Source: Clostridiaceae bacterium | GTDB taxonomy: Bacteria; Bacillota; Clostridia; DSM-8532 | DNA: 24,000 bases | Reading direction: 5' to 3' | NCBI GenBank assembly: GCA_012516065.1 | Contig: JAAYXD010000144.1 | Location: 4,577 to 28,576, forward strand | Shown here: one piece after another, positions 13,481-23,562 of the stretch | How positions within the stretch are numbered: the first letter of the stretch is position 1 | Layout: each line of letters begins with the position of its first letter | Position numbers and translations under genes: made by a program | The notes under the pieces: model-generated | Told to the model about the DNA's origin: nothing | The model's database searches: none | Seen by the model: the letters and a program-made list of their open reading frames with translations, nothing else

Positions 13481-14335
13481 TCAAATTCGATAATCATCCT
13501 TCAGGGATTCCATTAACCCATACTCCAGCAAAATTTCCTCCAAACGTTCCTGGGACAGGGGTTTGGGTATTGTAAAATAAGTATTCTCATCTATCGCTTT
13601 TGCCAACCGCCTGTATTCGTCGGCCTGCTGCGAATCCGGCGCATACTCGATGACAGTTTTTCTGTTGATTTCAGCACGCTGTACCACATTGTCCCTGGGA
13701 ACAAAATAAATCAGTTGAGTTCCCAGTTCTGCACAAAAAGCACGGAGAAGGTCGATTTCCCGGTCGACATTACGGCTGTTGCATATAATACCTCCCAGTC
13801 TCACACCACCCTTTTGTGCAAACTTTGCAATTCCCTTTGCAATATTGTTTGCAGCATACAATGCCATCATCTCACCACTTGCCACAATATAAATTTCTTT
13901 GGCTTTTCCTTCACGAATCGGCATGGCAAATCCGCCACAAACGACATCTCCAAGTACGTCATAAAATACATAGTCCAGATCATCATCATAGGCACCCAGC
14001 TGTTCCAGCAAACCTATGGAAGTAATAATTCCCCTTCCGGCACATCCAACACCGGGTTCCGGCCCTCCGGACTCCACACATTTTATTCCGCCGAATCCGA
14101 TGCGCACAATATTTTCAAGTTTCACATCTTCCCCGGTCTCACGCAGCGTATCCAGGACAGTTCGCTGTGCAAAGGTTCCCAATAAAAGTCTGGTGGAATC
14201 GGCCTTGGGATCACATCCCACCACCATGATTTTTTTACCGCTTTCCGCAAGTCCTGCGGTAAGGTTTTGCGTGGTGGTGGATTTTCCAATACCGCCCTTT
14301 CCATAAATAGCGATTTGTCTTATTTCTTTACTCAT
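13481..14335 (-). CDS. NifH-like nitrogenase iron protein / nitrogenase-like reductase ATPase component
   Basis: 284 aa. Walker A is '[16 protein letters not shown]', followed by '[14 protein letters not shown]'. The 4Fe-4S ligand contexts are '[21 protein letters not shown]' and '[21 protein letters not shown]', then '[10 protein letters not shown]' and '[13 protein letters not shown]'. These motifs match, one for one, my recollection of Azotobacter NifH. SD GGAGGT lies upstream of the ATG at 14335. Confidence 0.92.
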
Positions 14336-14355
14336 ATCTCTCTAACCTCCGTAAT

Positions 14356-15159
14356 CTATATGGTATATTCCGGCTGTGGCAGCGCACTTGCCAGATGCAG
14401 TTTTTCTAATATATTCCGTCGAAGGGAAAGAAATTCGGTTCCTCCACGATGCCGAGGATGTGGGAGATTAATCTCCATGATCTCACTGATTTTTCCGGGC
14501 CGCGGAGTCATAACCACAATACGGTCGGAAAGATAGATTGCTTCGTCCACATCGTGGGTTACCAGAATCATTGTCGTTTTATTTTCTTTATGAAGCTCAA
14601 GCAATTTATCCTGAATATCGGAACGGGTAAAGGAATCTAAGGCACTCATGGGTTCATCAAGAAGCAGTACCTTTGGATTATTGATCAATGCCCTGGCAAT
14701 AGCAACTCTCTGAGCCATACCTCCGCTTAACTGATGCGGGTAACATTTTTCAAACCCCTTAAGTCCAATCAGGTCTATATAATGGGCAATACGGTGTTTA
14801 TTCTCCCTATAAACATGGCGTGCCTTAAGTCCGGTTGCGATATTTTTCTCAACAGTCAGCCATTGAAAAAGACCTCCATGCTGAAAAACGTAGCCCCGCT
14901 CTGGATCTGGTCCGGAGATTTGCTCTCCGTTAAGAATCAGGGTTCCTGTTTCCGGCTTGTCAAGACCTGCTATAAGCCGTAAGAGCGTCGTCTTTCCGCA
15001 ACCGGAGGAACCTATGATGGAAAGGAATTCTCCCCGGCGGACGGACAAATTGATATCCCGAAGTACCTCAACATGGTTTCCGGCGTCGTCATAATAAGTG
15101 TAATTTACATTTTCTATATGTAAAATAATATCACTGATTACCGATAAGTTTTTGCTCAT
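14356..15159 (-). CDS. ABC transporter ATP-binding protein, NitT/TauT (nitrate/sulfonate/taurine) family
   Basis: Walker A is GSSGCGKTT, the signature is LSGGMAQRVAIARAL, Walker B is LLLDEP and the H-loop is VTHD. An ATGA overlap joins it to the permease stop at 15156-15159. Confidence 0.9.
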   Translation of the reverse strand: MSKNLSVISDIILHIENVNYTYYDDAGNHVEVLRDINLSVRRGEFLSIIGSSGCGKTTLLRLIAGLDKPETGTLILNGEQISGPDPERGYVFQHGGLFQWLTVEKNIATGLKARHVYRENKHRIAHYIDLIGLKGFEKCYPHQLSGGMAQRVAIARALINNPKVLLLDEPMSALDSFTRSDIQDKLLELHKENKTTMILVTHDVDEAIYLSDRIVVMTPRPGKISEIMEINLPHPRHRGGTEFLSLRRNILEKLHLASALPQPEYTI

Positions 15160-21558: not shown

Positions 21559-23030
21559 TTACCGGTACCTCCTTTCAGGAAATAATACGGCGGCTGCTCA
21601 AGCCACCATTTGGTGTATGGATTGATGGCATGCTTTTCGAGGTTTTTTACAAATTCATCGTTTTCAATAACTTCTAAAATACGCTCACCGTAATTGACCA
21701 GACCTTCATAACCCATGGAGTAATGTTCATCGCCAATTAAAAGTGACGGAATGCCCAGTTTTGCTCCCCAGAGAGTCATGCCGCCATGCCGGGCCAGCAA
21801 TACATCGGGACGGAGGCGGTTTAAGGCATTGACCAGCTCAAACTCCTGCTTGTTGCAAACATTGTAGTTAAAAACATTTCCATAATCGGCTACGCGCTGA
21901 GCCAGTTGGTCGTTTTCCTCACGTCCGCTGTCATAGATGGGGTCGTGATGGAAAATCGCTGCACCGACTGCTTTAATGCCAAGCTCTCCCAGTACATCCA
22001 GCAACGCATGGCCATGGGCAGCACCTGCTGTTACATAAGCCGTTTTTCCGGCCAATTTTTCCCGTAGAGCTTCAATTTTGGGCAGATACTCTTTCTTTTT
22101 TTCCGCAATGATTTTTTCAGCAATTTCTTCTTTGCCGAGGATCTTTCCCAACGCCCTGAACCATCTATCCGTTTGTGCAATACCGTAGGGTGGGGCGGCA
22201 GGAATTTCGGGAACACCAAAATCCTGTTCCAGCACTGCTCCCAGGTAGCTTCCCAGCGTGGAGCAAGCCTGGACGGTGGCAGCGGCCTCGCTGGCATATT
22301 TTAATCCGTTCACTGTAGAAAAAGGGATTATGTAATTGGGTTTTGCTCCAAAGGGAGCAAACCATTCGTAAAACACATCGCTGCCCCAGAAATTGATTAC
22401 ATTGATCATGTCATCCCGCCGCCTCCGGGGTTTTTGAATCAGCTTGCGTGCAATGCCGTGGTAAGCAGCGTCAAAACCTGTGGTCCATACTTTGGAACGA
22501 AAACCTTCGCAAAAGATGGCTACCACCGGTATTCCCAACTCTTCCTCGGCTTCGTTGCAAACGCTTTCCACATCATCGCCGATAATTCCGGCAGCGCATG
22601 TGGTCAATACAAAAATAGCGTTGGCATGCGTTCTCTCATATACCTCTCGAATGGTATTGGCAAGCTTTATATTTCCTCCGTAAACTGTATCCTTTTCCTT
22701 TAGATTGGTGGAAAAGATACGGCGTGGTGTGGGACGTTCAATACCGCGCAAAGGATAATTCACCCGATAGGTAAAGGCAAATTCATGCAGACAGGAAGCA
22801 CAGCCCACCGGTCCATGGCTGATGACTGCAGCGTCCTGAATTAACACAGTCATACAGGCCGCTTTTGAGGTAGCACAGCCCAGGCATTGGCTAAAGGAAC
22901 GTTCTTTATCCTTCAGACCGAATTCGCGGGCTTCTACCAGTTCCTTAGCATCTCCCTGATAACCCGTTATTGAATTAATACGAATTTCCCTTATCTGTAC
23001 TTCCGGAAGGGATAAATTTATTTTTGACAT
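21555..23030 (-). CDS. Nitrogenase component-1 alpha-like subunit (NifD/NifE-like)
   Basis: 491 aa. 'CLGCATSKAACMTV', 'VISHGPVGCASC' and 'VLTTCAAGIIGDDVESV' match NifD P-cluster Cys contexts. 'VQACSTLGSYLGAVLEQDFGVPE' aligns by eye with the NifD '[22 protein letters not shown]' cofactor-Cys region. 'KLGIPSLLIGDEHYSMGYEG' resembles the cofactor-His region. GGAGTG lies 7 nt upstream of the ATG at 23030. Confidence 0.85.
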   Translation of the reverse strand: MSKINLSLPEVQIREIRINSITGYQGDAKELVEAREFGLKDKERSFSQCLGCATSKAACMTVLIQDAAVISHGPVGCASCLHEFAFTYRVNYPLRGIERPTPRRIFSTNLKEKDTVYGGNIKLANTIREVYERTHANAIFVLTTCAAGIIGDDVESVCNEAEEELGIPVVAIFCEGFRSKVWTTGFDAAYHGIARKLIQKPRRRRDDMINVINFWGSDVFYEWFAPFGAKPNYIIPFSTVNGLKYASEAAATVQACSTLGSYLGAVLEQDFGVPEIPAAPPYGIAQTDRWFRALGKILGKEEIAEKIIAEKKKEYLPKIEALREKLAGKTAYVTAGAAHGHALLDVLGELGIKAVGAAIFHHDPIYDSGREENDQLAQRVADYGNVFNYNVCNKQEFELVNALNRLRPDVLLARHGGMTLWGAKLGIPSLLIGDEHYSMGYEGLVNYGERILEVIENDEFVKNLEKHAINPYTKWWLEQPPYYFLKGGTGK

Positions 23031-23514
23031 TTGTCATCACTCCGTTCGCTAAAGATTCCAAACTTTTTTCACTCATTCGATATGTACGCCGGTCTAAAAG
23101 GGGAACTGCCCCCAGATGCTTATAAAACCTTGAGCCGCTTTTATTGTCCTCAAGTACATACCAGTCAAGACGTTTCGCATCCATTTGCAAAGCTTTCTTT
23201 GCAAGCTGTTTCATAAGTGCTTTACCAATACCCTTACCTCGATATTCTTCTTTCACAAACAGGTCTTCTAAAAAGAGGTTTTGCCGTCCGGAGAAGGTGG
23301 AATATACGGGATAAAACAGTGCAAAGGCTGCGGGATTACCGTCAATTTCAGCTATTAAAACATTTGCCTGTCTTTTTTGAAAAAGGGATTCCCGAAGCTC
23401 TGCTTCAGTCGTTGTAACCTCTTTGCCCATCCCCTCAAATTCTGCAAGTTCTTTAATAAACGAAAGCACCAATGCACTGTCAGATATATCCGCTTCTCTA
23501 ATATGTAAGTCCAT
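22975..23514 (-). CDS. GNAT N-acetyltransferase, spermidine/spermine (SSAT)/diamine acetyltransferase-like
   Basis: 179 aa after trimming to the ATG at 23514, which has GGGGTGG 5 nt upstream. It runs colinear with my recollection of human SSAT. The matching pairs are 'FIKELAEFEGM' versus 'LIKELAKYEYM', 'LFLEDLFVKEEYRGKGIGKAL' versus '[21 protein letters not shown]', and 'SRFYKHLGA' versus 'INFYKRRGA'. The 3' end overlaps the NifD-like start by 56 nt. Confidence 0.85.
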   Translation of the reverse strand: MDLHIREADISDSALVLSFIKELAEFEGMGKEVTTTEAELRESLFQKRQANVLIAEIDGNPAAFALFYPVYSTFSGRQNLFLEDLFVKEEYRGKGIGKALMKQLAKKALQMDAKRLDWYVLEDNKSGSRFYKHLGAVPLLDRRTYRMSEKSLESLANGVMTNVKNKFIPSGSTDKGNSY

Positions 23515-23562
23515 AAAAACCACCCCTTTTGTATTAAACATATATGATTAGTATGTTTTAAA

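Follow-up and report, generated by a model that had tools for sequence, protein, structure and literature searches.

A conserved nitrogenase-like operon of Acetivibrio thermocellus with metY, an ABC importer and a cysteine-rich leader ORF: a probable anaerobic sulfur-scavenging system

We analysed a stretch of 24,000 nucleotides of contig JAAYXD010000144.1 (assembly GCA_012516065.1, Clostridiaceae bacterium), called the window below. Its minus strand carries ten co-directional open reading frames (ORFs), running from 23541 to 13481, that encode nitrogenase-like D, K and H proteins and two cofactor-maturation proteins together with an O-acetylhomoserine (OAH) sulfhydrylase (MetY), an ABC importer and a GNAT acetyltransferase. 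Pfam and NCBIfam gave the domain identities of all ten, in agreement with the first-pass annotation, made from the sequence alone, which had described this co-directional set and its domains at the same positions. With 100% identity, the D-like protein matches one from Acetivibrio thermocellus (formerly Clostridium thermocellum), and papers on that organism give the locus tags of the operon as Cthe_1564-1573 / Clo1313_2330-2339. The ten genes are one real operon of this cellulose degrader. The arrangement goes well past what chance would give; identical gene order is seen in dozens of species. The genes and borders of the operon are the following.

23563..23591, minus strand: sigma-70-type promoter candidate TTGACA-17-TAATAT (promoter scan, 10/12 matches)
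22975..23514, minus strand: GNAT N-acetyltransferase, SSAT / thialysine-acetyltransferase type (Clo1313_2330; Pfam/NCBIfam); the full ORF reaches 23541
21555..23030, minus strand: NifD-like catalytic subunit, 491 amino acids (Clo1313_2331/Cthe_1565), apparently of Group IV-A (Nfa) type; Oxidored_nitro
20215..21558, minus strand: NifK-like subunit, 447 amino acids (Clo1313_2332); Oxidored_nitro, P-cluster-type Cys14/38/98
19866..20222, minus strand: NifX-domain cofactor carrier; Nitro_FeMo-Co
18978..19853, minus strand: NifB-like radical-SAM maturase without NifX domain; TIGR01290, 279.8 bits, profile positions 9-279
17390..18706, minus strand: MetY, O-acetylhomoserine sulfhydrylase (Clo1313_2335/Cthe_1569); TIGR01326, 494.2 bits, cut-off 495.1; the full ORF extends to 18745
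16304..17377, minus strand: NMT1/SsuA-family substrate-binding lipoprotein, lipobox LFSGC (Pfam/NCBIfam)
15156..16223, minus strand: ABC permease with a long N-terminal extension; BPD_transp_1
14356..15159, minus strand: ABC ATPase (Pfam/NCBIfam)
13481..14335, minus strand: NifH Fe protein, canonical type (Clo1313_2339/Cthe_1573); TIGR01287, 462.9 bits, cut-off 394.35
13476-13450 and 13407-13389, minus strand: two terminator-like hairpins 3' of nifH, the first with a weak T-run, the second, from the terminator scan, followed by a T-run

The ATGA overlaps reported earlier at the D/K and permease/ATPase junctions are present, and the 3' end of the GNAT gene overlaps D by 56 nt. The starts preceded by a Shine-Dalgarno (SD) sequence are probably ATG 23514 for the GNAT and ATG 18706 for MetY. 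With MetY starting at 18706, the NifB-MetY spacer measures 271 nt, not the 232 nt given originally. As to the proposed borders, scans recovered the TTGACA promoter candidate and one terminator, the second hairpin being weaker. As the first-pass annotation had stated, nifE/nifN, nifV and PII-type genes are missing from the window, and no further Oxidored_nitro, PII or nifV-like gene was found in its 24,000 nt.

To place the operon in a comparative context, one genome per species was scanned; 338 genomes encode a relative, and the best 80 loci were analysed. D is 73-97% identical in these loci, nearly all of which come from Bacillota. Searches with the ten window proteins (tblastn) recovered the order D-K-(X)-(B)-MetY-binding protein-permease-ATPase-H in about 45 of them, and a contig binned to Treponema has the same gene order. 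For 53 loci, 8.5 kb or more of sequence was available downstream of D. MetY was found in 35 of these, an SsuA-like ABC system in 38 and a canonical-type NifH in 37; four carry an H just ~50% identical to that of the window. At least one sulfur-amino-acid gene or transporter was present in 49 of the 53. The first-pass annotation had proposed such a survey of metY and NitT/TauT-type transporters, and the association is indeed conserved across species. A PII homologue was found in none of the 80 loci, the query being an E. coli GlnB sequence. Upstream of D, the relatives carry metN-metI-metQ, a Cys/Met pyridoxal-phosphate (PLP) enzyme and a CysK/CBS-like PALP enzyme, then DUF4418, an FtsX-type permease and an ABC ATPase. 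This island corresponds to Clo1313_2325-2329, and an ABC ATPase fragment at the end of the window fits it. The sulfur-assimilation neighbours claimed earlier are found upstream, past the end of the window. Outside the operon, the window itself has a nucleoside-catabolism/YjjI glycyl-radical cluster where sulfur genes had been claimed. Four loci (L011, L039, L062 and L067) hold a second, distant D/K-like pair beside the first, with identities of 43% and 39% in Pectinatus haikarae and of 30% and 33% in L039, so several nitrogenase-like paralogues can cluster together.

Among solved structures, D and K matched best MarD and MarK of the Rhodospirillum rubrum methylthio-alkane reductase (PDB 9FMG, 9D9U), with 438 and 384 bits; the next matches after Mar reached 135 bits (D) and 56 bits (K). 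D contains Cys49/52/59/77/80/145/256 and Arg414-His415, the latter pair corresponding to R428-H429 of MarD. The cluster ligands kept are C52, C77, C145, C256, R414 and H415 in D and C14, C38 and C98 in K, and equivalents of MarD C270, R428 and H429 are all present. Scores against the nitrogenase equivalogs were low (D, 139 bits to NifD, cut-off 653.55; K, 82 bits to NifK, cut-off 427.3). We therefore agree with the first-pass annotation that the enzyme is nitrogenase-like and not Nif/Vnf/Anf. A bona fide nitrogenase of Groups I-III was rejected on these scores and on the lack of nifE/nifN/nifV/nifI partners.

An exhaustive search among 50%-identity representatives defined a small clade around the window D, consisting of representative P0100 (79% identical) and one partial sequence (59%). 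All remaining full-length D representatives were at most 43% identical to it, and P0124, the representative nearest MarD (54% to MarD), was just 40% identical. In an alignment of 98 full-length D-like sequences, mostly 50%-cluster representatives, the pattern of seven cysteines was confined to the window clade, MarD lacking two of the seven. The two extra cysteines, which the clade keeps without exception and MarD lacks, each make one of the first two P-cluster ligands part of a CxxC motif (C49-x-x-C52 and C77-x-x-C80), so the electron-transfer cluster may differ from a standard P-cluster. According to a 2026 Chemical Reviews article, NfaD of Endomicrobium proavitum has its cysteines at 50, 53, 60, 78, 81, 146 and 257 and NfaK at 13, 37 and 97, a spacing identical to that of the seven cysteines of the window D and of Cys14, 38 and 98 of K. 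The K motifs RFTCAI/GPGCGEM/LTGCTAG are similar to those of E. proavitum NfaK (RFMCAI/GPGCGTM/LTGCTSA), printed in the supplement of Morimoto et al. 2024 (PMC11423573). The Nfa orthologue list of the same paper includes Ruminiclostridium species and a termite spirochaete, groups in which relatives of the window locus occur, and a 2023 preprint, which covers A. thermocellus among other organisms, puts clostridial 'MarHDK-like' genes in group IV-A. From this spacing, the motifs and these two lists, D and K appear to belong to Group IV-A (Nfa), a placement that leans on published residue numbers and motifs. E. proavitum NfaD was found neither among the best 80 loci nor among the 120 best matches to a Treponema homologue. 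The supplement of PMC11423573 gives accessions for E. proavitum D, K, B and H (WP_052570612, 613, 618, 620) and for Leadbettera azotonutricia D, K and H (WP_015710518, 519, 526). In both organisms the span from D to H covers nine numbers, like the nine window genes from D to H, which hints that their 'N2-fixing' clusters may hold five extra genes.

The Fe protein is of another type. It is 77% identical to C. pasteurianum NifH (460 bits, as against 299 bits to MarH) and passes the NifH equivalog cut-off, which places it outside the Nfa/Mar clade of Fe proteins. Published NfaH proteins, on the contrary, group with MarH, and a review gives NfaH as 41% identical to A. vinelandii NifH. The H protein, described as NifH-like in the first-pass annotation, is of the canonical NifH type. 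Since D and K fit Group IV-A while the Fe protein fits canonical NifH, unlike published NfaH, the system appears, as judged from its protein sequences, to be a hybrid of Group IV-A catalytic subunits and a canonical-type NifH. Homologues of the window NifH, 83-92% identical, occur in dozens of clostridial species.

The substrate-binding protein scored 104.3 bits against the SsuA_fam model (cut-off 163.5) and at most 29 bits against TauA models, and its best solved structure is that of an uncharacterised Bordetella protein. These comparisons establish its superfamily (NMT1/SsuA) but point to no particular ligand. Matches to the NCBIfam 'Sao' transporter, a selenoprotein-associated organometallic system, were below cut-off and were discarded. 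The best solved relatives of the GNAT are thialysine and diamine N-acetyltransferases. The first-pass annotation had listed the GNAT as part of the set; as it is found in 16 of the 80 loci, often behind a second MetY paralogue, it is an accessory protein, dispensable in most species. It possibly acetylates an amino group of the substrate, of the product or of a toxic analogue. More speculatively, its family hints at an amino-bearing thioether, thialysine-like or a methylthioalkylamine, as the substrate.

Two cis-elements accompany the operon. The first is a repeated palindromic sequence whose two copies flank the promoter candidate.

23600..23615, minus strand: upstream repeat copy TCATATAAGTTTAATA, 16 nt, candidate operator half-site just 5' of the -35 box
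23532..23547, minus strand: downstream repeat copy TCATATATGTTTAATA, between the -10 box and the GNAT ribosome binding site (RBS)

The 16-mer TCATATA[A/T]GTTTAATA has two exact copies in the window, against 0.04 expected. Allowing up to two mismatches, 39 sites were counted in 78 other loci, the near-identical locus L001 being left out, compared with 4.4±2.3 in local shuffles (~9-fold). Many of these operator-like sites lie 30-370 nt upstream of metN, a CGS-like gene, a second MetY, or D/GNAT. Conserved flanks outside the searched 16-mer extend it to a 26-bp palindrome, CATA-N5-CATATATG-N5-TATG. From its sequence and distribution, this palindrome looks like the site of one regulator common to the nitrogenase-like operon and to Met/Cys genes, with Rrf2/CymR-type proteins as candidates.

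The second element is a short ORF in the NifB-MetY spacer.

18691..18780, minus strand: leader ORF MCSDCDMTEMPRCILSNLFIGGDLTWQTN and stop codon, ATG at 18780, extended SD TAGGAGGTGG, 16-nt overlap with the metY start

The first-pass annotation had noticed an upstream ORF in this spacer, and related loci conserve it. An extended SD (~AAGGGGGTGGTG) precedes metY in 34 loci, in most of them followed by a start codon and a short peptide such as MMCDCDMPDC, MECECSIPDCC or MCSDCDMCDMCDC. In the window the ORF is rich in Cys and Met codons. In 25 of the 34 loci the leader frame stays open up to the metY start, which holds for the two alternative frames in just 2 and 4 loci. Cys, Met and Asp make up 21.9%, 9.1% and 15.7% of leader residues 2-15, compared with a background of 1.3%, 1.4% and 4.9% for proteins of the operon. 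TGT (72) and TGC (14) both serve as Cys codons, and the start codon may be ATG, TTG or GTG. Because of the frame kept open, the enrichment in Cys, Met and Asp, the use of both Cys codons and the start variants, we take the leader ORF to be translated. It usually crosses the metY RBS and start codon in another frame. In a scan of whole loci, Cys-rich leader ORFs were nearly confined to the position before metY; in one locus such an ORF lies before a different ABC gene after nifB.

Several variants of this arrangement were observed. Six loci (L039, L046, L047, L053, L054 and L056) have metY directly after K, and there the leader has decayed to a mini-ORF of four codons (MICN, MICI, MIGN or MIRT, then stop) with a weaker SD; L039 also has a group-IV-type H and a more distant NifB. 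At L051, from 14099 onward, the Cys-rich leader is in frame with metY and would yield an N-terminally extended MetY (MCCDCESDSAESDCTNMKGRRDYMATEV...). In the window, two direct copies of ACATGATTGAAAA, 34 nt apart, lie upstream of the leader ORF at 18861-18908 (minus strand), and a weak promoter-like match is found at 18966-18937. The NifB-MetY spacer may hold a promoter of its own or a further regulatory site.

We searched for RNA signals that might accompany the leader. No Rfam family reached its gathering score in the window, and scans of 13 related loci returned a single T-box, ~6 kb upstream of D in Herbinix hemicellulosilytica (L008 3754-4003, 113.8 bits), a locus without a Cys-rich leader ORF. 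Riboswitch or T-box control of the operon was rejected on the basis of these scans. Transcription attenuation was also rejected, as no terminator was found by scan in the spacer. In some loci, minimum-free-energy folding put the start of the leader in a helix with the metY start; duplex energies between the two were no better than those of shuffles (mean z -0.34), and an RBS-sequestering helix was dropped after this null result. The position and composition of the leader suggest a ribosome-stalling sensor of Cys/Met supply acting on metY translation. As to mechanism, we favour plain occlusion, in which ribosome traffic would cover the overlapping metY start, as the unproven but preferred option.

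Leaders of this kind have precedents in the mycobacterial polycysteine small ORFs and in the alpha-proteobacterial cysS uORFC-8-2, in which the presumed sensor is a ribosome that stalls when charged tRNA-Cys is scarce. Like them, the A. thermocellus leader is a small ORF in which Cys codons cluster and which lies right before a sulfur-amino-acid gene. It differs in having a very strong SD instead of being leaderless, in mixing Cys, Met and Asp codons, in lying inside an operon where it reads over the start codon of the regulated gene, in its Firmicutes host, and in that no RBS-sequestering helix, terminator or other alternative RNA structure was detected.

Public data on strain DSM 1313 bear on the use of the operon. 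Transcripts of Clo1313_2328-2339 follow one common pattern over six comparisons. The proximal block was labelled 'cysteine metabolism' by the authors of the data, and the pattern is unlike that of the sulfate-assimilation cluster. Proteomics detected five of the proteins (D, K, MetY, the binding protein and NifH) in cells on standard medium, which is nitrogen-replete and contains cysteine. Biswas et al. 2017 recorded a several-fold rise of D, GNAT and NifH across their samples, the sample order being unchecked, with MetY remaining flat; a flat MetY beside rising D, GNAT and NifH fits, weakly, leader control of metY. Transcript levels of the operon's proximal half parted slightly from those of its distal half in the one acetate comparison. 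Clo1313_2331, 2332 and 2339 are given in one paper as the sole genes of the organism with putative N2-fixation functions.

Gene content, cluster-ligand residues, synteny, the two cis-elements and co-expression in public data are the observations from which we argue. We think it probable that this is a cysteine/sulfur-controlled operon for anaerobic sulfur scavenging, in which a thiol would be released reductively from an imported organosulfur compound. We infer carbon-sulfur cleavage from the homology to Mar and the tight link to metY; Mar passes methanethiol to an OAH sulfhydrylase. Our proposals on what the enzyme acts upon, on the direction in which the operon is regulated and on what the GNAT does are likewise conditional. 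A polar compound would suit better than a volatile sulfide because the importer is dedicated. The proposal of the first-pass annotation that import, C-S cleavage and thiol fixation are physically linked thus stands for its tie to sulfur assimilation, its reductive step being an argument from homology and linkage.

The proposed pathway would run as follows. The SsuA/NMT1-type ABC system would import a polar, non-volatile organosulfur compound. The NifB-like radical-SAM enzyme would build an [Fe8S9C]-type cluster, which the NifX-like protein may pass to the NifDK-like heterotetramer bearing P-cluster-type ligands. With electrons supplied by the canonical-type NifH, which would hydrolyse ATP, the D/K component would cleave a carbon-sulfur bond reductively. 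MetY would then join the released thiol, methanethiol or sulfide, to O-acetylhomoserine and give methionine or homocysteine, and the upstream island (MetNIQ, the Cys/Met PLP enzyme and the CysK/CBS-like enzyme) would interconvert methionine and cysteine. Transcription would start at the sigma-70-type promoter between two copies of the palindromic operator, the same operator standing before neighbouring sulfur genes, and the Cys/Met-rich leader ORF would tune metY translation to the supply of charged tRNA-Cys/tRNA-Met.

Several results weigh against a sulfur-scavenging C-S reductase. The identity to R. rubrum MarDK is 44% for D and 42% for K. The MarD active-site residues H194, W195, S196, F199, F374 and H375 correspond to V181, W182, T183, F186, F360 and H361 in the window, that is, with two changes (H194 to Val and S196 to Thr), and V181 and T183 are invariant in the window clade. 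In the channel, M70, C73, Y98 and I101 of MarD correspond to K56, C59, F84 and T87, so that three of four positions differ. R. palustris NflDK3, with 52-56% identity to Mar1, nevertheless showed no activity on the volatile sulfur compounds tested. For Group IV-A itself, N2 fixation and nitrogen-regulated expression have been reported in E. proavitum, and because this is the published function of the group, Mar chemistry is not simply transferable to D and K. The operon contains a bona fide NifH-type Fe protein, the binding protein is under every curated sulfonate-binding cut-off, and the GNAT is rare (20% of loci). Finally, the Rfam scans, the terminator scan and the duplex test did not find an RNA structure that explains the leader ORF. 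Simple membership in the Mar family was rejected on the low identity, the sharp drop in D identity from at least 59% to at most 43%, and the active-site and channel changes. The C-S reductase suggested initially is accordingly retained for its sulfur link and for MarDK as best solved homologue; assignment to the Mar family is given up in view of the 44%/42% identities and the Nfa fingerprint.

Comparison with known systems shows which features are shared. MarBHDK of R. rubrum (Group IV-C), the best solved match for D and K, has in common with the window system the six P-cluster cysteines, the catalytic-cluster ligands Cys270/His429, Arg428, W195, F199, F374 and H375, a NifB homologue (MarB) without NifX domain, the link to OAH sulfhydrylase and sulfur-gene surroundings. 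Unlike Mar, the window system has a canonical Fe protein, two extra cysteines forming CxxC motifs, metY and an ABC importer inside the operon, and a leader ORF. As in the window, the Nfa system known from E. proavitum and Heliophilum fasciatum (NfaBHDK, IV-A, 'nitrogen fixation alternative') is a B/H/D/K set without NifEN. It differs in its published function and regulation, which concern nitrogen, while the context, cis-elements and expression of the window operon point to sulfur; it also differs in its Fe protein, NfaH clustering with MarH while the window H is 77% identical to genuine NifH. R. palustris Mar2 and NflDK3 are Mar-like D/K proteins encoded beside metY/metC and a NifX homologue and induced by sulfate limitation. 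In contrast to the window operon these loci are proteobacterial and scattered in layout, no operon-internal importer or leader ORF has been described for them, and their proteins are 52-65% identical to Mar1, from which the window is more distant.

A sulfur-acquisition reductase acting on a sulfonate or other oxidised sulfur, releasing sulfite as in an Isr-like desulfonation instead of cleaving a thioether, is the alternative that survives best, although we consider it unlikely. In its favour, the importer is a member of the SsuA/TauA/NMT1 family, a sulfite reductase cluster exists in the organism, and a nitrogenase-like enzyme acting on isethionate is known: IsrBHDK of Rhodobacter capsulatus (IV-F), which also serves anaerobic organosulfur assimilation and adjoins a TauABC/SsuA-type transporter (Morimoto et al. 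2024, mSphere, PMC11423573; the first-pass annotation had dated this work 2022). MetY, the most tightly linked partner, on the other hand accepts thiols and sulfide but no sulfite, and genes for sulfate/sulfite assimilation show a regulation unlike that of the operon. D and K retain P-cluster and L-cluster-type ligands as in Mar, with the P-cluster cysteines intact, and their partner is NifB-like (TIGR01290, 279.8 bits). Isr, according to the review, has diverged P-cluster and cofactor ligands, predicted [4Fe-4S] clusters, a BciD-like IsrB and no linked metY.

Alternatively, the operon may encode a Group IV-A alternative nitrogenase that reduces mainly N2 or nitrogen oxides, its sulfur genes merely feeding Fe-S cofactor synthesis. 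In line with this, the cysteine fingerprint of D and K fits E. proavitum NfaDK, enzymes of this kind are all that E. proavitum and H. fasciatum have for growth on N2 and for acetylene reduction, and the Fe protein is a canonical NifH. Acetylene reduction by C. thermocellum was reported in 1986, at least in the account given in PMC8209448; by the same account it was not suppressed by ammonium, which does not suit a nitrogenase. Nor do the other data: nifE/N, nifV and PII were found neither in the window nor at the 80 loci, the scores of D (139 vs 654 bits) and K (82 vs 427 bits) lie far under the equivalog cut-offs, the operon proteins are made under nitrogen-replete conditions and co-vary with cysteine-metabolism genes, and both the Cys/Met leader ORF and the sulfur-island operator fit nitrogen control poorly. 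The 2026 review itself doubts N2 fixation as the primary function of Nfa. We regard this alternative as decidedly improbable.

The least likely of the three is endogenous methionine salvage from methylthio by-products together with a corrinoid methyltransferase cluster elsewhere in the genome, the transporter being loosely related. It is favoured by the MGC preprint, which found IV-A MarHDK-like genes alongside non-selenium type I MGCs and suggested that they serve methionine salvage, and by the role of R. rubrum Mar in methylthioadenosine (MTA) salvage. However, 38 of 53 loci have the ABC importer placed after metY and before nifH, which points to a substrate taken up from outside, and the MGC of the organism (Clo1313_0372-0375) follows the expression of sulfate assimilation and not that of the operon.

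Part of this picture is already known. C-S cleavage by nitrogenase-like enzymes, Mar homologues in Bacillota, the repeated association of Group IV enzymes with sulfur genes (PMC13474568) and the clostridial IV-A MarHDK-like genes, those of this organism included (PMC13474568, PMC10418091), have all been published. In a limited literature search, we found no description of a conserved operon in which metY and importer genes separate the maturase gene from that of a canonical NifH, of the Cys/Met leader ORF and the shared palindromic operator, or of the tension with the 'alternative nitrogenase' label of IV-A. The suggestion that the cluster is an uncharacterised variant thus keeps its force for the importer and metY layout, and is less novel than supposed as regards the IV-A genes and the sulfur link.

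Outside the operon, the window has genes for a histidine kinase and its AraC-type response regulator as well as a nucleoside-catabolism cluster. The co-directional genes of this cluster (2530-11773, minus strand) specify a member of the purine-nucleoside-phosphorylase family, a nucleoside-binding protein of Bmp/PnrA type, an ABC ATPase and two permeases, a cytidine deaminase and a DeoC aldolase. Also among them are a YjjI-like glycyl-radical enzyme and the radical-SAM activase that goes with it, so that the glycyl-radical enzyme sits inside an operon for nucleoside uptake and catabolism. An ORF of 263 amino acids at 12338-13129 (plus strand) has no Pfam match. The G+C content is 34-38% at window positions 1-2000 and 12000-13000, compared with 42-51% elsewhere, and GC skew is strongly positive.

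A sulfur-scavenging role would have consequences beyond this organism. Tentatively, we propose that Group IV-A 'Nfa' enzymes are primarily sulfur-scavenging C-S reductases, with N2 and acetylene reduction as side activities, and that in Clostridia they work with a canonical NifH, a Cys-sensing leader, a sulfur-regulon operator and a dedicated importer. N2 fixation by this clade, without NifEN or the canonical FeMo-co histidine, has been claimed, and the conserved sulfur context, the leader ORF and the nitrogen-independent expression make the question 'sulfur or nitrogen?' directly testable here. The 2026 review names uncharacterised clades and the scarcity of tractable hosts as the two main obstacles in the field; the host of this operon is tractable and heavily studied, and a nifH deletion strain, AG2078, exists. 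The leader ORF would bring ribosome-based cysteine sensing to Firmicutes. The canonical-type NifH of the operon is a likely source of false diazotroph calls, since nifH surveys of guts, rumen, digesters and other anaerobic habitats would count such genes as diazotrophs. If the proposal is true, many gut, rumen and digester 'nifH' sequences report sulfur and not nitrogen metabolism, and the tractable A. thermocellus becomes the model in which to find the substrate.

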